From: Escherichia coli
GTDB taxonomy: Bacteria; Pseudomonadota; Gammaproteobacteria; Enterobacterales; Enterobacteriaceae
Assembly (NCBI RefSeq): GCF_003018255.1
Contig: NZ_CP027440.1
DNA: 64,000 bases
Reading direction: 5' to 3' (one strand)
Position numbers and translations under genes: made by a program. Positions within the stretch are counted from its first letter, which is position 1. Each line of letters begins with the position of its first letter. This document shows positions 4,798 through 60,758 of the stretch, one piece after another. The notes under the pieces are model-generated. The model was not told where the DNA came from and ran no database searches. It saw nothing but the letters and a program-made list of their open reading frames with translations.

Positions 4798-5232
4798 TTA
4801 CAGCACCTTGGTGAAGCGGAAGTGGCTCTGCTCGTAGCCTTCGCGCAGGTAAAATCGGTGCGCGTCGTGGCGCTTCACGTTGGTGGAAAGCTCAGTCATT
4901 TCGGCCCCGGCCTGGCGGGCTTCTTCTTCTGCCCATGCCAGTAATTTGCTGCCGACATTCAGACCGCGCGCCTGCGGCATCACCACCAGTTCCTGAATTT
5001 CGCCGATCCAGTTGACATGATGCAGATGAAACTGCAAATGCAGGCCGATCATGCCGACAACTTCGCCATCCAGCAGCGCCAGTTGGTAGCGCATGTTCGG
5101 ATCGCGCAGATTGGCGTTAAACCCCACGCGAAACGCCTGGTGGTCAAACTCCGCCTGTTTTAGCTCACAAATCAGCGCGTAAACTGCGTCGGTGTCGTAC
5201 TGCGTAGCCGGGCGAAGCTCACAAGCAGGCAT
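4798..5232 (-). CDS. phnO: aminoalkylphosphonate N-acetyltransferase (GNAT)
   Basis: 144-aa ORF, GNAT-like, phn operon synteny. Confidence 0.85.
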
Positions 5233-31111: not shown

Positions 31112-32164
31112 ATGATGTCTGCACCCAAAATTACATTTATCGGCGCTGGTTCGACGATTTTCGTTAAAAATATTCTTGGTGATGTGTTCCATCGCGAGGC
31201 GCTGAAAACGGCGCATATTGCCCTGATGGACATTGATCCCACCCGCCTGGAAGAGTCGCATATTGTGGTGCGCAAGCTGATGGATTCAGCAGGGGCCAGC
31301 GGCAAAATCACCTGCCACACCCAACAGAAAGAAGCCTTACAGGATGCCGATTTTGTCGTGGTGGCATTTCAGATTGGCGGTTATGAACCTTGCACGGTGA
31401 CTGATTTCGAGGTCTGTAAGCGGCATGGTCTGGAACAAACCATTGCCGATACGTTGGGGCCGGGCGGTATTATGCGCGCGCTACGTACCATTCCGCATCT
31501 GTGGCAAATTTGCGAGGACATGACGGAAGTCTGCCCCGATGCCACCATGCTCAACTACGTTAACCCAATGGCGATGAATACCTGGGCGATGTATGCCCGC
31601 TATCCGCATATCAAACAGGTAGGGCTGTGCCATTCGGTGCAGGGAACGGCGGAAGAGCTGGCGCGTGACCTCAATATCGACCCGGCTACGCTGCGTTACC
31701 GTTGCGCAGGTATCAACCATATGGCGTTTTACCTGGAACTGGAGCGCAAAACCGCCGACGGCAGTTACGTGAATCTCTACCCGGAACTGCTGGCGGTTTA
31801 TGAAGCAGGGCAGGCACCGAAGCCGAATATTCATGGCAATACTCGCTGCCAGAATATTGTGCGCTACGAAATGTTCAAAAAGCTGGGCTACTTCGTCACG
31901 GAATCGTCAGAACATTTTGCTGAGTACACGCCGTGGTTTATTAAGCCAGGTCGTGAGGATTTGATTGAGCGTTATAAAGTACCGCTGGATGAGTACCCGA
32001 AACGCTGCGTCGAGCAGCTGGCGAACTGGCATAAAGAGCTGGAGGAGTATAAGAACGCCTCCCGGATTGATATTAAACCGTCACGGGAATATGCCAGCAC
32101 AATCATGAACGCTATCTGGACTGGCGAGCCGAGTGTGATTTACGGCAACGTCCGTAACGTATAG
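31112..32164 (+). pseudogene. melA: alpha-galactosidase, 5' fragment (about 349 codons) truncated by prophage insertion
   Basis: GH4 N-terminus MMSAPKITFIGAGS; the frame ends ...IYGNVRNV* exactly where prophage-end sequence begins; full-length MelA is recalled as about 451 aa. Confidence 0.8.
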
Positions 32165-32260
32165 CGCGGCGATTTTTTTGATACCGATTTGCATTTCATT
32201 TGATACCGCTGAAAAACGCCGATACGCAACTTATTTGATACTAAATCGGCGCTTTTCTTT
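32165..32260. repeat. prophage right-end terminal region with three direct TTTGATAC(C/T) repeats; candidate transposase-binding sites
   Basis: Repeats at 32177, 32199 and 32234 plus a GAAAAACGC motif, immediately inside the melA junction. Confidence 0.45.
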
Positions 32261-32287
32261 TGAGTTTTAGAATGAGTTTTTAAGCGC

Positions 32288-33025
32288 TCATTCACTCTCT
32301 TTCAAACCAGTTTTAACTGTTTGTGGTTTTGGGTAAGGCTGGACTTTGAATAGCTTTGTGTTGAGGCGTTTTCTGGCCCTCTTGTTCAGAAACCGGATGT
32401 AACGAAACTGTCGGAACTTATGCACACTGGCTCTGTCGATATTAGCCCTCAGATGTTCACCTCGTTGTCCGCCTCGTTTAATGGCACTCCTGCAAATCTC
32501 GTGATACCACTCGCCATCAAGTTCATAGAATGTTGATTCATGGCTGCCTACATAATCAAAATTGCTTGCCTGATACACGACACCAAGACAGCCACAACGC
32601 TCATCTGCAAACGACTGAACCCACTGTACCTGCGGATAAAGCTGCCTGATTAGCTTGAGCGCGTAACTGATTGCCCTTGATTCGGAGTTTCTCGGCATAC
32701 AGTCATGCATCCATAGCCGGTTAAGCTCCATATATTCTCGGTTCTGCGTACCCGTTACGACGCGTGCACCACTGTTTGGGTTAAGGGCGTAACCCCATTG
32801 CATTACGCCAACAAGTTCCCGTTCTGAAAATATACCCAGATGAAGGTAGGAATTATTTACGAAACGGTGGCTGTAATGTTTATTGACGATAACCAGTCTG
32901 GCCAGCCAGCAACTTATTGTCTCAACCCGCAACTCACGGGAGCCATAACCAACGATATTGTCGTTATAGCGAATAAGTTCAGGCGTGCTGATGATACGGG
33001 ATGTGACTTGCTTTCTGTTCCCCAC
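32288..33025 (-). CDS. mom: Mom-like DNA modification (adenine carbamoylmethylation) protein
   Basis: 245-aa ORF overlapping the 3' end of a com-like gene, last gene before the prophage end as in Mu; true start probably internal. Confidence 0.6.
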
Positions 33026-33794: not shown

Positions 33795-34040
33795 TTACAT
33801 CATAGTACCGTCAGTTCCGGGTTGAACCGGCTCTGGTTGCTCTACGGGTTGAGGCTCATTTTCCGTGCTGTTTTCAGCCGGAGAACGACCAACCATTCGG
33901 GCCAGCACTTCATCAACATATGCGTCGATTTGTGCCTCAAAATCCTTGCGAACCTGCGCCTTCAGCACGCGGTTCACTTCTTCAGAATAAAGTGCCTGTT
34001 TGACAAGCTCTTCAGTAACCGTGCCTTTAATCTCTGGCAT
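33795..34040 (-). CDS. hypothetical acidic 81-aa protein
   Basis: ORF with AGGAG RBS upstream of ATG; no recognisable motif. Confidence 0.45.
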   Translation of the reverse strand: MPEIKGTVTEELVKQALYSEEVNRVLKAQVRKDFEAQIDAYVDEVLARMVGRSPAENSTENEPQPVEQPEPVQPGTDGTMM

Positions 34041-34075
34041 GAATATTCTCCTTTCCTTTTCTGGTTCACAAAAAA

Positions 34076-34255
34076 TTAAATCTGACCGGAGTCTTTCGGC
34101 TGCGGCATTACAGCACCGCTTTTTATCTTTTCCTCGGCAGCTGCATCAATTTTATTTCGAAAATAATTGCGAATAATTTTATAACCACCGCTGACAAGCA
34201 ACAGACAACAAACCACCGTGCAGAAATACAGCAGGCAGACGTTTATATATGTCAT
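34076..34255 (-). CDS. hypothetical 59-aa single-pass membrane protein
   Basis: MTYINVCLLYFCTVVCCLLLVSGGYKIIRNYF... read from the minus strand, GAGG RBS; below the ORF-track length cutoff. Confidence 0.4.
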   Translation of the reverse strand: MTYINVCLLYFCTVVCCLLLVSGGYKIIRNYFRNKIDAAAEEKIKSGAVMPQPKDSGQI

Positions 34256-34312
34256 ATAAGCCTCACTCTTATTAACTGATGTTACAGCCGGATAAATTCC
34301 CGGCCGTCACGA

Positions 34313-36361
34313 TTATGCCGCAGGGGTATTAACCTCAAGGACAACGCTCTCAAAAGACACGCCATAAGTTGCCCCTTTGGTGACATCTGTCAGTGTCAGC
34401 GTATCTTTGGCAGGGGAAAGTGCATCTTTCACCATCTGGAATGCCTGGCCCGGAGTGCCATCCAGCACAGGCGTTACCTGGGCACTTCCCGCCGTAAACT
34501 TCAGGACAAGTGTATGCCACTGGTTATTGTAGGCTCCAAATGATCCCAGTTTCGTATTCCCCCCTGTTTTATGGTGCATCAGATTTAACTGGCCGCCTGT
34601 TGTCTGGAGATAATACGCCATCAGGAACGGTGTGCCTGTACCACTCATGGTTACACCTTCCGGGACCGTATCGGTGTGGAGGTAAATACCCAGAGCAAAC
34701 TGGCCTTCTTTTACTTCACCTGACAGACGGAATTTACAGGTCAACTGACCACCATGCTTCAGAAGTTCACCGGCTGCATCAGTTCCATGGGTAAGCGTCC
34801 AGGTTTTTCCGCTTTGTTTGGATACGGTCAACGCTTTACCTTCGTCCGTCAGCTGGATTGTACCATCTGTAATTTTCCAGCCCTGAGCCGGGGCTTCTCC
34901 TGCTGATGCTTTAAGTGAAAGCAGCGTACGGAGTGACGGGGATGTCGGATGGGGGGACTCACTGCCTCCTGGCTGACTACCTGTCGGCGCTTCCGGTTTC
35001 CCACCCGGCGCGGGCTGAGGCAGGGCTTCACCATCAGGGGCCACACCGGCAATAAATGCAGAGGTCAGACCTGCATATTTAAGAATTGCTGATGCAAAAC
35101 GATCTGAGACCAGAAAACGGCGCGCCCAGGAGCTAAAATGGGTTGCCCTGGATGCTGTTGTCCAGTTGCCATCTCCCCGTGATTCCGCACCATAATACCC
35201 GGCAGAAGCGATATCCGGGTCGTGCTCCGGCAGGTTGGTCGCGGTTTTATTACCGAACTCATCGTGCATCAGTGGAACAAAGTGAATGTTCTCGGAAGCC
35301 CGGTTTTTATATCCGCTATAAATGGTTTCATATGCCGCCGGGTTCTTCTCTTTCCAGTCATAGGTTGTGTCACCACATAACCACGGCACACTGTCTGATG
35401 AACCACCAATACACTGACCGGAGAAAGCACCAAGATCCGCACGGAATTTTTTCACCATCGCAGTAAACTGGGCACCATGCTGGGCCGGGGTCGCTTTAAG
35501 GTCTCCTTCCCCCTGAATCCATACGACAGATAACAGCACATTCTTTGGATTCGCCTCAAGTGCCGCTTTAGTTCGACTGACAAGATCCTGATACAGTGGG
35601 GTATCCACTCCCCAGCGTAGTGACGCCTCGGCTGCACCACTTGCCGGATCGAATGAGCCAACTGCGCCGGTTGTAAAAGCAGAGCCGCCACGGGCACAGG
35701 GAACCAGTAAAATCCCGGCATCAGCAGGAATCACCGGTAATACTTTTTTCGCAATATGAAGTCCCTGCCCCACACAACCATACTGCCCTTTTTTCAGGTC
35801 TGCTTTTGGATGGTTCAGCAGACTCATATTCTGAACATCATGAAGGCAGTGATCTGCTGGAATGATTTCATTGTATTTGCAGGGAATACCTCCGGGGGTT
35901 TGTGTATTCCTGCGTGCCAGCTGCATAATACGTGGATCAGGACGATCATAAGAATCCGGAAGGGGCAACCCTTCACCATAAGATGAAGCATTGGACTGGC
36001 CGGCTATAACAATCACGTAATACCAGGAAGGGGAGCTGGAAGCAGTTTCATTTCCTGACGGACGGGTATGTGTTTCAGCATTATCCCAGTCTGACGGTTC
36101 AGCAGTACCGGCAACATCAGCACTTAACGGAATGACCGCACCAATACCCGCTCCGGTAATTTCCACACTCGGATCACCGGATACTGGCCTTACCCACAGG
36201 CAATCCCGTGTATTAAAACTGATGAGACAGTCAGCAAATGTCATTCCTCCTTTTGTTTCGGCCGGAGGAAAGGGAGCCTCAAGAAATGCCGCTGTACCAC
36301 CGGAAACTTTAACAGTAAAGTTTCCGGGCATTGATGATAGTTGAACCCATTTGGACGTCAT
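34313..36361 (-). CDS. SGNH/SASA-type sialate O-acetylesterase-like protein with C-terminal beta-rich putative carbohydrate-binding domain (resembles prophage NanS-p family)
   Basis: 682-aa ORF; IAGQSNASSYG esterase signature, Pro-rich linker, about 200-aa C-terminal domain; no signal peptide. Confidence 0.55.
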   Translation of the reverse strand: MTSKWVQLSSMPGNFTVKVSGGTAAFLEAPFPPAETKGGMTFADCLISFNTRDCLWVRPVSGDPSVEITGAGIGAVIPLSADVAGTAEPSDWDNAETHTRPSGNETASSSPSWYYVIVIAGQSNASSYGEGLPLPDSYDRPDPRIMQLARRNTQTPGGIPCKYNEIIPADHCLHDVQNMSLLNHPKADLKKGQYGCVGQGLHIAKKVLPVIPADAGILLVPCARGGSAFTTGAVGSFDPASGAAEASLRWGVDTPLYQDLVSRTKAALEANPKNVLLSVVWIQGEGDLKATPAQHGAQFTAMVKKFRADLGAFSGQCIGGSSDSVPWLCGDTTYDWKEKNPAAYETIYSGYKNRASENIHFVPLMHDEFGNKTATNLPEHDPDIASAGYYGAESRGDGNWTTASRATHFSSWARRFLVSDRFASAILKYAGLTSAFIAGVAPDGEALPQPAPGGKPEAPTGSQPGGSESPHPTSPSLRTLLSLKASAGEAPAQGWKITDGTIQLTDEGKALTVSKQSGKTWTLTHGTDAAGELLKHGGQLTCKFRLSGEVKEGQFALGIYLHTDTVPEGVTMSGTGTPFLMAYYLQTTGGQLNLMHHKTGGNTKLGSFGAYNNQWHTLVLKFTAGSAQVTPVLDGTPGQAFQMVKDALSPAKDTLTLTDVTKGATYGVSFESVVLEVNTPAA

Positions 36362-37021: not shown

Positions 37022-37076
37022 GTATTTACCTTCCTTAAAAAGAGGTGAAAATGCCTTTTAAAACAGATATACGGTA

Positions 37077-37102
37077 TCCCTGAAAACCTCGGTTTACGGG
37101 AA
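37077..37102. promoter_or_regulatory. gix-like recombination site, gin-proximal (crossover core TC at 37089-37090)
   Basis: tccctgaaaacc tc ggtttacgggaa matches the gix/hix consensus TTATCCAAAACC TC GGTTTACAGGAA (recalled). Confidence 0.65.
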
Positions 37103-37471
37103 ACGGTAAATAAGGCTGCTGATGCCCTGCCATCGGGTGGAACCGCCGTGGCAGCAAACAGACTCGCCACCCCAAGAAATATTAATGGCGTTCCTTTTGA
37201 CGGAACGCAGGATATCAACATCACGTCAGGAATGACGCAGTCAACCGCAGATGGCCGGTATGTACAGAATGTTCAGCTTGGAGCACAGAGCTATCATTCA
37301 CCCGGAGGCAATGAAATATCATGGAATTACAGCGCACCTTCCGGTTGTATGCTTTCCGGTATTAACGTGCAGGAAACCGGCTCCCGGTCTGCGGACAATA
37401 TCGGTGGGGTCTATTATCGCCCGGTTCAGATTTATATTAATAATGCCTGGAGAACGGTAAGTTCAGTGTAA
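37091..37471 (+). CDS. promoterless alternative tail-fibre C-terminal cassette (S'v-like) inside the invertible segment
   Basis: Open frame from the gix core: GLRETVNKAADALPSGGTAVAANRLATPRNINGVPFDGTQDINITSGMTQS... shares its first 50 codons with the expressed fibre then diverges; ORF track 37148..37471. Confidence 0.6.
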   Translation, partial: GLRETVNKAADALPSGGTAVAANRLATPRNINGVPFDGTQDINITSGMTQSTADGRYVQNVQLGAQSYHSPGGNEISWNYSAPSGCMLSGINVQETGSRSADNIGGVYYRPVQIYINNAWRTVSSV

Positions 37472-37505
37472 ACCACAGAAAAGGGTGCTGAATGCACCCT
37501 CTGAA

Positions 37506-38027
37506 TTATTCCGGTTTTTCCGGCCAGGGAATCGCCTGGTAATGCCCCTCACTGGCAATATCATTAAAGTGCATTTCTTTAAGCTGTCGGATATACGCCA
37601 TCCAGCGCGTCAGCTGTAATTTATTTTCATCGCTAATCATGTCCAGTTTTAATTCTGTTTTCCAGTCATCCACGGTTTCGTTGGCTTCCTGGAGCAGCGA
37701 TGAGCGACGCTTTTCAGCAACCGTCTTCCAGTTTACCGGCACCTTTGATATCAGGCCATCAGAAAACTGCCAGTTACCGTCAATATTCACACCTTCCGGC
37801 AGTTCGTCCACTTCAACAACAGTAAAACCTGCCGGATATAAAGCAGAGACATCTTCAGCAACAGAGCAGATAATACCCGTTACAGGCGAAATACAGAGTT
37901 TGTATTTCTTTGTGAAAAGCGGGATAGATTCATAAAAATCCCTTCCGTCCTCACTCTGGAAATACTGAACATCCTCACCATAGGGTTTGTGTTCCGGGTA
38001 ATATCGTTTTACGTTAATAAGCTCCAT
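37506..38027 (-). CDS. tail fibre assembly (chaperone) protein, U-like
   Basis: ORF track 37506..38138; start at MELINVKRYYPEH (AAGGTG RBS); downstream of the fibre gene. Confidence 0.7.
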   Translation of the reverse strand: MELINVKRYYPEHKPYGEDVQYFQSEDGRDFYESIPLFTKKYKLCISPVTGIICSVAEDVSALYPAGFTVVEVDELPEGVNIDGNWQFSDGLISKVPVNWKTVAEKRRSSLLQEANETVDDWKTELKLDMISDENKLQLTRWMAYIRQLKEMHFNDIASEGHYQAIPWPEKPE

Positions 38028-38106
38028 TATTTCACCTTGTTTTTGTTGAAAAGACAAAATCATCATATATTTATTCAGATAATCTGTTTTTTGAACTACT
38101 GCACTT

Positions 38107-38994
38107 TTATGCGCTGGAAGCTGTTTTCCACGAACCATCTATCAGAAACTGAACAGGTCGATAATATGCGGTTACCGTTGCATTACCATCACCAGCGACA
38201 TCAAGCCCTGTAAGTACGCATCCGTCAGGAACTTCAAAAATATTATATTGCATTCCAATCGTTGACCTTGAACCTCTTCGAATGCTTTGAACATAACGTG
38301 AGTCAGCCACAGACTGCGTCATCCCCGATGTAATATTTATATCCTGCGTTCCGTCAAATGGGACACCATTAATATTTCTTGGAGTGGCGAGTTTATTCGC
38401 TGCAACAGCCGTTCCGTTCGATGGCAGGGCATTCGCCGCCTTATTTACCGTTTCCCGTAAACCGACGTTATCGATAAAAGCGCCTTTATCCGGAATGTCT
38501 GCGCCGTTCTGCTCCCTGCGCAGGTAACGGTTATCACCTTCGCTTTTGCTGTAAACATCCAGATTATTACGGGCGGTTCCCGCATTCTCCAGGTCGGCAA
38601 GGTTCTGATCCTTCGCCAGAGCATTAACGTCACCGGGACCAAGACTGTTTTTTGTGGCAAGCGCCCCAAGACCAAGATAACCACGGGCAAGACGCTGGGC
38701 TTCCGCACCGGCATCAGCAATTTCTTTCAGGTTGTTTTTCCGGGAAAAGGCATTCGCAGCGATAATGGCTTTAATGGACAGCGTAAGCTGGTTTAACTGC
38801 GCCTTATCCGGCTGAATACTGGCTTCAGCCAGAATATTCAGCAGTTCGGCCTGGAGAATATTCAGCCAGTCCTGACCAATCCAGCTGATACCTTTTTGTC
38901 CGTCACCTTCGGTAAACCAGGTGGTGGTATTACTCTGCGCCGGTGCCAGCGCAGGCATATTCGCCACGCCGGAATTATTATCAACATGAAACAT
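38107..38994 (-). CDS. tail fibre protein (S-like); constant part outside and variable C-terminus inside the invertible segment
   Basis: 295-aa ORF; the gix site at 38452-38477 lies in-frame inside the coding sequence (codons FIDNVGLRE). Confidence 0.75.
   Translation of the reverse strand: MFHVDNNSGVANMPALAPAQSNTTTWFTEGDGQKGISWIGQDWLNILQAELLNILAEASIQPDKAQLNQLTLSIKAIIAANAFSRKNNLKEIADAGAEAQRLARGYLGLGALATKNSLGPGDVNALAKDQNLADLENAGTARNNLDVYSKSEGDNRYLRREQNGADIPDKGAFIDNVGLRETVNKAANALPSNGTAVAANKLATPRNINGVPFDGTQDINITSGMTQSVADSRYVQSIRRGSRSTIGMQYNIFEVPDGCVLTGLDVAGDGNATVTAYYRPVQFLIDGSWKTASSA
38452..38477. promoter_or_regulatory. gix-like recombination site, distal (core GA at 38464-38465), inside the tail-fibre gene
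   Basis: ttcccgtaaacc ga cgttatcgataa; same left half and core as the inverted site at 37077-37102. Confidence 0.65.
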
Positions 38995-52358: not shown

Positions 52359-52534
52359 TCCGGCAGCATAGGCCGGGAATTTTCAGGGCGGGTTTTGCGG
52401 GATTTCAGGAAGTGCTTCCAGGGGAAAAATACAAAGGCGCTTCACGCAGATTTTAAAGCCCGTTAAATACAGGTTAGAAAATCACGACACGCGCCTGAAG
52501 GGGGTAAGGTAATGCATTTGCATACCTTAAACAA
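52359..52534 (-). promoter_or_regulatory. 176-bp non-coding gap upstream of the protease gene with imperfect palindrome aggtaatgcatttgcatacctt; candidate activator-dependent late promoter
   Basis: The only sizeable gap inside the otherwise tightly packed head operon. Confidence 0.3.
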
Positions 52535-53008: not shown

Positions 53009-53129
53009 ATTGCCTCCGTATAAAATATGAATATAAAATAAGCAGGCGGTCAGTGTACGCTTAACTGGTAAAGTCGGTGCCTGCCTCCGGGTGGATCATG
53101 TATGCGGGTTCGACCCCCGCCACTGACCG

Positions 53130-60261: not shown

Positions 60262-60332
60262 TGTTACGCTGTCTCATGATGTTCTCTGAGTCAGCGTAAC
60301 GGTGAAGGAGAGGCGGCAGGCTTTGCGGAATA

Positions 60333-60758
60333 TCAGAAAAGTGGCGGTTGCGTTCTTGCCAGATGCAGACGGCGCTGTTCGCGTATGACGGTATAAATCT
60401 GGGTTTCTGACATCCGGTAATGGCGGCGAAGGGATTCAATTTTCTCGCCCCGGTCCCAGCGCGAAAATATCTCATTGTTTCGCAGCTCGGCAAAGAGAGA
60501 TTCCCCGACCGGCAGGTAATAACCCCGTCCGCCCATATAGGCTGCCTGAGCCGCAGCCACCTTGCGTGCCAGTTTACCGGCCAGTACCGGCTCAATCCCC
60601 TGACGCTGAAGTTCTGCGCCGGTGACTTCAACCAGTTCTGACAGGGTCCGCGGCCAGTTCTTTTTGAGAACATCATCAGGGATGTCATCAAGGCGGTCGA
60701 TAAGGGCGTGCAGTTGCTCACTGTCACCACCAAACATGCTCATCTGAGTTTCTGCCAT
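60333..60758 (-). CDS. Mor/C-family transcriptional activator
   Basis: C-terminal region GGRGYYLP...IYTVIREQRRL resembles Mu Mor (GGGQVYIP...VYKAIRRMRRL, recalled); immediately upstream of the lysis gene. Confidence 0.65.
   Translation of the reverse strand: MAETQMSMFGGDSEQLHALIDRLDDIPDDVLKKNWPRTLSELVEVTGAELQRQGIEPVLAGKLARKVAAAQAAYMGGRGYYLPVGESLFAELRNNEIFSRWDRGEKIESLRRHYRMSETQIYTVIREQRRLHLARTQPPLF

Follow-up and report, generated by a model that had tools for sequence, protein, structure and literature searches.

A 64,000-nucleotide (nt) stretch of Escherichia coli DNA (contig NZ_CP027440.1 of assembly GCF_003018255.1), to which we refer in its full length as the window, contains from about 32.2 kb to its end a Mu-like prophage. 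The element analyzed here is the host-specificity region of this prophage, which is of the Sp18 type. On the minus strand, a set of baseplate genes is followed by the gene for a tail fibre of 295 amino acids (aa; 38994-38107), by the tail fibre assembly (chaperone) gene tfa, whose product is listed in RefSeq as tail fiber assembly protein WP_000420351.1, and by a recombinase gene, gin; on the plus strand, a 126-codon frame that lacks a start codon points toward the 3' end of tfa (Table 1). The fibre gene consists of a constant part (Sc) and a variable tip cassette (Sv, named T1), and the plus-strand frame is a silent alternative to the latter (Sv', named O1). We use the term orphan for a tip without a co-oriented tfa gene, and we distinguish state A, in which tfa is co-oriented with the fibre (the state of the window, with T1 fused to Sc), from state B, in which the orphan tip is fused and tfa lies antisense.

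Table 1. Position and supporting evidence of the features that make up the tail fibre switch, in window coordinates.
Feature	Position	Strand	Evidence
gin-like serine DNA invertase gene, 186 aa	36461..37021	-	Pfam Resolvase and HTH_7; PHROG DNA invertase, 6e-95; alignment with Mu Gin
gin-proximal gix-like crossover site, core TC at 37089-37090	37077..37102		20/26 versus Mu gix; one of the two 18-mer copies
Inverted repeat, left arm; codes for the ~46-60 initial residues that the two cassettes share	37082..37266		81% complementary; alignment
Silent alternative fibre tip cassette Sv' (O1), 126 codons and stop	37091..37471	+	phrog_1833, tail fibre C-terminal part, 6e-58
Invertible segment, 1373 bp between the core dinucleotides	37091..38463		In-silico inversion matches a natural genome
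GC-rich terminator-like hairpin between the converging O1 and tfa stop codons	37480..37502		9-bp stem, then T-rich tail on the minus strand
tfa, sole tail fibre assembly (chaperone) gene, 173 aa	37506..38027	-	Caudo_TAP; phrog_136, 1e-57; homology to Mu U
AT-rich spacer, 79 nt, Sv stop codon to tfa start codon	38028..38106	-	Sequence; only weak promoter-like matches inside
Currently expressed fibre tip cassette Sv (T1), 118 codons and stop, co-oriented with tfa	38107..38463	-	Translation
Inverted repeat, right arm	38288..38472		Repeat search
Sc-proximal gix-like crossover site, core GA (coding strand TC) at 38464-38465	38452..38477		22/26 versus Mu gix
Constant fibre N-terminal part Sc, 177 aa, outside the invertible segment	38464..38994	-	Homology to Mu S residues 1-191

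T1 and O1 are 60% identical overall, a value that falls to about 36-40% over their last 70 residues, and their fusion to Sc gives fibres of 295 aa (Sc-T1) and 303 aa (Sc-O1). With tips that differ to this extent, the two orientations would be predicted to confer different host ranges in the manner of phage Mu. A start codon belonging to O1 itself was sought, and no in-frame ATG, GTG or TTG is present between the upstream stop codon at 37046 and the gix site; an open reading frame (ORF) beginning with GTG (37148-37471) is merely the tail end of the O1 cassette and was rejected as a separate gene. The switch accounts for the fact that annotation pipelines call the silent cassette a truncated pseudogene in these genomes.

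An earlier interpretation of this DNA from its letters alone (the sequence-only reading) had proposed that two 26-bp gix-like sites in inverted orientation flank the segment and that a Gin-type invertase is encoded next to it; both proposals are confirmed. The gin-proximal site reads TCCCTGAAAACC-TC-GGTTTACGGGAA and its inverted partner on the side of Sc reads TTCCCGTAAACC-GA-CGTTATCGATAA, with the same inner half-site and core in both. The 18-mer TCGGTTTACGGGAAACGG that is common to them occurs exactly twice in the window, in inverted orientation, where 0.06 copies are expected from shuffled sequences, and two copies were seen in none of 100 shuffles. The gix site of Mu (NC_000929), TTATCCAAAACC TC GGTTTACAGGAA, is matched at 22 of 26 positions by the Sc-proximal and at 20 of 26 by the gin-proximal site, and the coding sequence that flanks the sites is homologous to that of Mu as well. 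A palindromic hix/gix consensus gave no match with three or fewer mismatches in the window sites; the inner half-site of Mu itself also deviates from it, and we dropped this yardstick in favor of the direct comparison with the real Mu sites. The inverted repeats around the sites, previously put at 166 bp, have arms of 185 nt that match at 81%, so that the earlier figure was about right, and the estimate of ~1.37 kb for the segment agrees with its measured length.

The recombinase carries the Pfam domains Resolvase (1.7e-51, residues 3-135) and HTH_7 (3e-14, residues 138-181), is identical to Mu Gin at 137 of 187 residues (73%) and contains the catalytic-serine motif RVSTNDQ. The first 260 nt of gin, the region that holds the Fis-dependent enhancer in Gin-type systems, are 53-87% identical to Mu gin when scored per 30-nt window. 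In both copies of the site, the core TC occupies codon positions 2-3 (GTC in the active fibre gene, CTC beside gin), and inversion consequently yields an in-frame fusion, as the sequence-only reading had anticipated for the cassette at 37091-37471. One related IMG/VR contig (L022, 3300001149_000052; positions 4966 and 6338) has TT instead of TC in both cores, a matched change of the kind that a working pair of sites requires.

Both orientation states exist in nature. When the window was inverted in silico at the cores and compared with the genome of E. coli O157:H7 strain 380-94, no mismatches were found in 2601 bp, as opposed to 825 mismatches for the uninverted sequence; in this strain, a fused 303-aa Sc-O1 fibre gene is annotated and tfa is located on the opposite strand. 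The two arms share 28 identical bp that include the cores, and the breakpoint is resolved no more finely than this stretch. On two contigs from one IMG genome (L055 and L057) the segment is 100% identical yet inverted between flanks that are 99.6-99.9% identical, and the strains DLI.5a, TOE17, and AST46 each carry copies in both states within one genome. Ten IMG/VR contigs (L023, L027, L032, L036, L041, L043, L045, L046, L049, and L054) stop ~0-150 nt from the Sc-side crossover site. Such contig ends are typical of short-read assemblies of cultures in which both orientations are present; the repeat alone could also break contigs.

Mu pairs every tip with a separate assembly gene (S with U, S' with U'). 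We searched 73 fetched loci by tblastn with three Tfa queries (the Tfa protein of the window and both Tfa proteins of SfMu) and recovered exactly one tfa gene in each of the 21 complete Sp18-type loci, which comprise 16 IMG/VR contigs and five E. coli genomes. In the segment of the window, including the plus strand of 37470-38100, the three queries matched one place only, and neither of the plus-strand ORFs at 37639-37935 (98 aa) and 37989-38213 (74 aa) had a PHROG match; the statement of the sequence-only reading that a second, U'-like chaperone gene is missing is thereby borne out. The Mu-type rule of one assembly gene per tip holds neither in the window nor in any of the 21 complete relatives. 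A single tfa is the normal design of this family, which has reduced the two chaperone genes of Mu to one.

The layout is combined with different tips. At least four cassette combinations occur among the relatives, in which the tfa-linked tips T1, T2, and T3 are found with the orphan tips O1 and O2. The T classes are only 28-38% identical to each other, and T2 resembles the Mu S tip (59%); the orphan tip that converges with tfa is always O1 or O2, both of which carry the motif ADN(I/V)GGVYYRP. The Tfa protein itself has a PF02413 (Caudo_TAP) domain (2e-18, residues 62-173) and aligns over residues 17-147 with Mu U (PDB 5YVQ_B; 2e-15). The ratio of non-synonymous to synonymous substitution rates (dN/dS) of tfa is 0.08-0.18 where the synonymous divergence (dS) is measurable (at least 0.2).

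The spacer in front of tfa measures 79, 52, and 121-122 nt in the three E. coli types and 70 nt in a Citrobacter relative with one tfa gene. In contrast, fibre gene and tfa are separated by 2-8 nt or overlap in Mu, SfMu, Rac-SA53, fiAA91-ss, CR8, 186, Hafnia phage yong1, and an Edwardsiella prophage. Judged by this spacing, tfa appears to be uncoupled from the upstream cassette in the Sp18-type loci, unlike in systems that have two tfa genes or are non-invertible. The T type co-varies with the first ~20 codons of tfa, which suggests the recent exchange of a single module made up of the T cassette, the spacer and the start of tfa. A rearranged third copy in E. coli TOE17 (L004, 3403-3921) has, relative to L005, lost 219 bp and carries a 520-bp piece (3' portion of tfa plus the end of O2) as an inverted duplication, so that its T3 cassette and tfa are broken; it could be a product of aberrant recombination or a misassembly.

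The gene order of the window, from the baseplate genes via fibre, invertible segment and gin to com/mom at the prophage end, is that of the G segment region of Mu, and also of SfMu, and the crossover sites occupy homologous positions in the two fibre genes, where GL(Q/R)ETVN is encoded. The two systems differ in the number of assembly genes (U and U' in Mu, one tfa in the window), in the size of the segment (about 3 kb in Mu), in the distance from the fibre gene to the assembly gene (2 nt in Mu, 79 nt in the window) and in the fibre itself, which has 504 aa in Mu and about 300 aa in the window, where the shaft corresponding to Mu S ~191 to ~434 is missing. A further difference is the cargo between gin and com/mom of the window, which codes for a SASA/DUF6645 esterase, DUF1378 and DUF826. 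Two tfa genes are present in Mu, SfMu and the Edwardsiella prophage, the last of which has the canonical S-U / U'-S' layout and is, together with the Citrobacter prophage, one of the more distant relatives. A parallel in having fewer tfa genes than tip cassettes is the prophage of Citrobacter braakii ATCC 51113 (L011), which has a related fibre N-terminus (73%), a Gin homologue (68%), in-frame gix-like sites and the 70-nt spacer before tfa mentioned above. It deviates from the window in carrying three sites (L011/L056 6826, 8850, and 9216) and three cassettes with longer tips, and its tfa codes for 229 aa with a distinct C-terminal part. It is a multiple-inversion system, which we take to resemble others of this kind such as Min of plasmid p15B, and its currently fused tip, too, is without a co-oriented tfa gene.

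The sequence-only reading had considered that the alternative fibre might be non-functional or a decaying remnant, and our data disfavor both options. For O1, dN/dS between alleles lies at 0.04-0.13 (dS ranging from 0.2 up to saturation, above 2), and for O2 at 0.07-0.16; the orphan cassettes are intact in all loci except L031, in which O2 has a premature stop codon and gin is frameshifted as well. Copies of one T type are nearly clonal (dS of at most 0.04), too close to one another for selection on the T tips to be measured. Given the low dN/dS values, the fusion of the orphan tip in most assemblies and the fact that Sp18 makes packaged particles, the orphan tip is probably a functional part of the phage and not a relic.

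This majority became apparent from a census of 5426 complete E. coli genomes, 207 of which contain a near-identical cassette type and 26 more the second, unrelated T3/O2 type. At a coverage of at least 80%, the cassette type of the window is found in state A in 25 and in state B in 182 genomes, and the window copy consequently represents the rarer orientation. For the T3/O2 type, which resides in diverse strains other than Shiga toxin (Stx)-producing E. coli and at different chromosomal positions, the numbers are 6 (A) and 20 (B), and for the IMG/VR contigs they are 5 (A) and 22 (B). Per genome, the median count of matching places is 1, rising to 2 where the inverted middle of one and the same locus scores as a second place. 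The sites give no reason for an intrinsic bias, since they do not differ between the two states, and fast, unbiased switching should result in a ratio of ~50:50 among assemblies. The simplest reading of the skew is slow switching combined with a founder effect, with the particles that found lysogens in E. coli being mostly in state B; this in turn would imply that the O fibre works. The loci occupied by Mu-like prophages vary among O157 strains (PMC7430833), which counts against a purely clonal explanation.

How an orphan tip might be matured is suggested by its relatives. Residues 1-198 of the fibre, which include Sc, align to residues 1-191 of Mu S (PDB 5YVQ_A; 1e-48 to 8e-52) and both alternative tips align to its residues 434-504; both are shortened homologues of the Mu S tip, the part to which the Mu chaperone binds, and both appear functional. 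In Mu Tfa, the N-terminal domain attaches to the fibre tip, and trimerisation is driven by the conserved C-terminal domain (PMC9608196). Tips homologous to O1 are present in SfMu (S'), Rac-SA53, the P2-like phage fiAA91-ss and Cronobacter phage CR8, and each of them has its own tfa gene 2-5 nt downstream. With a tfa gene beside all O-like tips that were checked, a requirement for a chaperone is the default expectation. The closest phage relative of the N-terminal domain of the window Tfa is tail2 of Rac-SA53 (67-69% identical), and the fibre tip with which it is paired there (tail1) is 65% identical to O1 and only 38% to T1; Rac-SA53 differs from the window in being non-invertible, with tfa 2 nt after the fibre gene and in the same orientation. 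Conversely, the closest T1-like tip, that of Hafnia phage yong1 (59%), is paired with a Tfa that is just 37% identical. Of the tfa alleles, the two that were compared (from the T1 and T3 types) agree at 73% in the N-terminal domain, despite the low similarity of the T tip classes. These pairings and the conservation of the domain suggest that one Tfa can serve O tips and is not tailored to T tips. The second-closest phage relative of the N-terminal domain (51%) is the Tfa of phage 186, a non-invertible, P2-like phage; its fibre gene K contains an annotated 'Mu-like inversion crossover site' (L076 1909-1934).

The locus is a working tail fibre switch, probably for host range, of an active Sp18-type Mu-like prophage of pathogenic E. 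coli. Gin recombines the two gix sites and thereby flips the 1.37-kb segment, and the flip joins Sc in frame either to T1 and the following tfa gene (state A) or to O1 (state B). We propose, tentatively and at odds that we place somewhat short of even, that a single, shared Tfa serves both tips. The late fibre transcript would supply Tfa in state A. For state B, tfa would need a signal of its own, probably located in the AT-rich spacer of 52-122 nt, and its expression would be aided by the roughly hundred-fold genome amplification that accompanies Mu-type replication. Within this proposal, it is the action of Tfa on O1 and the expression of tfa in state B that we infer.

Several findings weigh against the shared chaperone. 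No sigma-70-like promoter with at least 9 of 12 matching positions is present upstream of tfa in the T1, T2, and T3 spacers, and a weight-matrix scan of the spacers gave only weak candidates, of which 0.13-0.47 are expected by chance per spacer and which we do not count as evidence. The late-promoter motif CCGCAAARCCYGCC, found upstream of lys and I, is absent near tfa, its exact copies being restricted to 60315 and 52387. Comparison of the three E. coli types shows no conservation among their spacers, and the terminator-like hairpin stands between the orphan cassette and tfa. In addition, O-like tips also pair with Tfa proteins that are only 31-42% identical to that of the window, and the link between tip and domain is accordingly loose. 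The orientation counts are phylogenetically non-independent, with many of the genomes belonging to O157:H7, and selection within lysogens may be an alternative cause of the skew; the purifying selection on the orphan tips may stem in part from other phages that supply imported alleles. As to the promoter searches, a possible match to a C-activated late promoter with two mismatches (37820-37833) was discarded, as it is antisense inside tfa and within chance expectation. The gap between gin and its gix site likewise contained no sigma-70-like promoter with at least 9 of 12 matches, and promoter-like 9/12 matches occur only in the 70-nt Citrobacter spacer. At the position of the hairpin, the T3/O2-type relative has a different one.

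Some of these findings would fit an orphan tip that folds and trimerises without Tfa. The chaperone would then be needed, or would act as a receptor-binding cap, for the T tips only, and the switch would alternate between T fibres with a cap and O fibres lacking one. The gene order of state B, with no co-transcribed tfa and a hairpin after the cassette, and the lack of a convincing tfa promoter in the spacers scanned speak for this explanation, as does the fact that an O tip which is under purifying selection and fused in the commoner state must work somehow. Mu Tfa remains attached to the mature fibre and has a part in receptor recognition (PMC9608196; North and Davidson, 2021, in the form in which that work is cited in PMC11915804), which would be in line with a role as a cap. 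On the other hand, the Mu S tip, to which T1 and O1 are both homologous, is bound by Tfa, all O-like tips checked in other phages have a tfa gene of their own 2-5 nt downstream, and the nearest relative of the fibre-binding domain of Tfa partners an O1-like tip. For this reason the chaperone-independent fibre, one of the options offered by the sequence-only reading, stands in weakened form, and we regard it as unlikely.

The remaining two explanations strike us as distinctly improbable. A chaperone supplied in trans during state B could originate from a second prophage copy in state A or from a related tfa gene of another resident prophage. Genomes that hold two or three copies in different orientations do occur (L055/L057; DLI.5a, TOE17, and AST46), and the Rac-type prophage Rac-SA53 codes for a Tfa with a 67-69% identical N-terminal domain; however, most genomes are single-copy, and reliance on a second element would leave a phage that moves from lineage to lineage vulnerable. 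Alternatively, state B might be non-infectious for want of a functional fibre, either as the off position of a phase switch or because the orphan cassette is decaying after the loss of U'. This would agree with the presence of only one tfa gene, antisense in state B, and with the occasional broken copies (the O2 stop codon and gin frameshift of L031, a frameshifted T3 in L064, and the rearranged L004). Against it stand dN/dS values of 0.04-0.16 over deep synonymous divergence in cassettes that are almost always intact, the retention of the layout in at least four cassette combinations, and the predominance of state B in both of the independent cassette types, where state A should prevail if lysogens were founded by state-A particles alone. 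Leaving the choice between a shared and a dispensable chaperone aside, we consider it fairly probable that either one Tfa co-transcribed with one tip supports both, or that tips of a class elsewhere paired with a chaperone can fold unaided.

The window is 100% identical to the corresponding DNA of E. coli O111:H11 strain 88.0502 and of three other genomes. According to the RefSeq annotation of strain 88.0502, the Mu-like prophage possesses a transposase, a Mor/C-family activator, Mu-type head and tail genes, gin and terminal com/mom genes; it is inserted between gabP and gabT and splits the gabDTP operon (window ~32150-32290 and beyond 64000). Sp18, the prophage of O157:H7 Sakai, is of the same phage family, and in O157:H7 genomes the region is 99-100% identical to that of the window apart from its orientation; the window copy differs in its position between gabP and gabT, which it shares with strain 88.0502. 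Asadulghani et al. (PMC2669165) noted an invertible host-specificity region of Sp18 in a single sentence as early as 2009, and Sp18 is reported there to be spontaneously induced and packaged and to yield Mu-like particles; the sites, the single chaperone gene and the orientation bias are not described in the text searched. The fibre switch was correctly read as Gin-type from the sequence, and its existence in Sp18 was previously known. Our literature search found no description of the single-tfa layout, a weak negative, as many subscription papers lie outside its coverage; within the literature searched, there appears to be no account of this layout and of how well it is conserved, of selection acting on the orphan tip or of the bias toward antisense tfa.

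The cargo between gin and com/mom (33795-36361, minus strand) consists of the gene for a 682-aa protein with a SASA (sialate O-acetylesterase) domain and DUF6645, followed by the DUF1378 and DUF826 genes. The 682-aa protein presumably resembles NanS-p. Cargo of this kind is typical of the late region of Stx/lambdoid phages, and it is the same in all E. coli relatives examined. The motif CCGCAAA(G/A)CC(T/C)GCC upstream of the lysozyme and head protease genes (60315-60328 and 52387-52400, minus strand) precedes TACGCT and TATGCT elements by ~25-35 nt, and the two copies are probably binding sites for the Mor/C-family late activator predicted for this prophage (gene at 60333-60758). A 'tRNA-OTHER' that RefSeq lists between two head morphogenesis genes at window ~53049-53128 (plus strand; L010 23049-23128) had no ARAGORN call and was not retained.

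Tfa chaperones are a hindrance to the engineering of phage host range, as a swapped tip usually needs the matching Tfa. The Sp18-type prophages form a widespread and active family in which at least two tips are kept with one tfa gene, mostly in the orientation in which tfa is antisense, and this points to either a chaperone with broad action or a tip that can do without. The sites, cores and cassette classes given here provide a description of the Sp18 switch at the level of its sequence. Either reading, if true, would make these prophages a natural test of the specificity of tail fibre chaperones, and the family would be an example of a Mu-type switch that operates on half the usual chaperone set.

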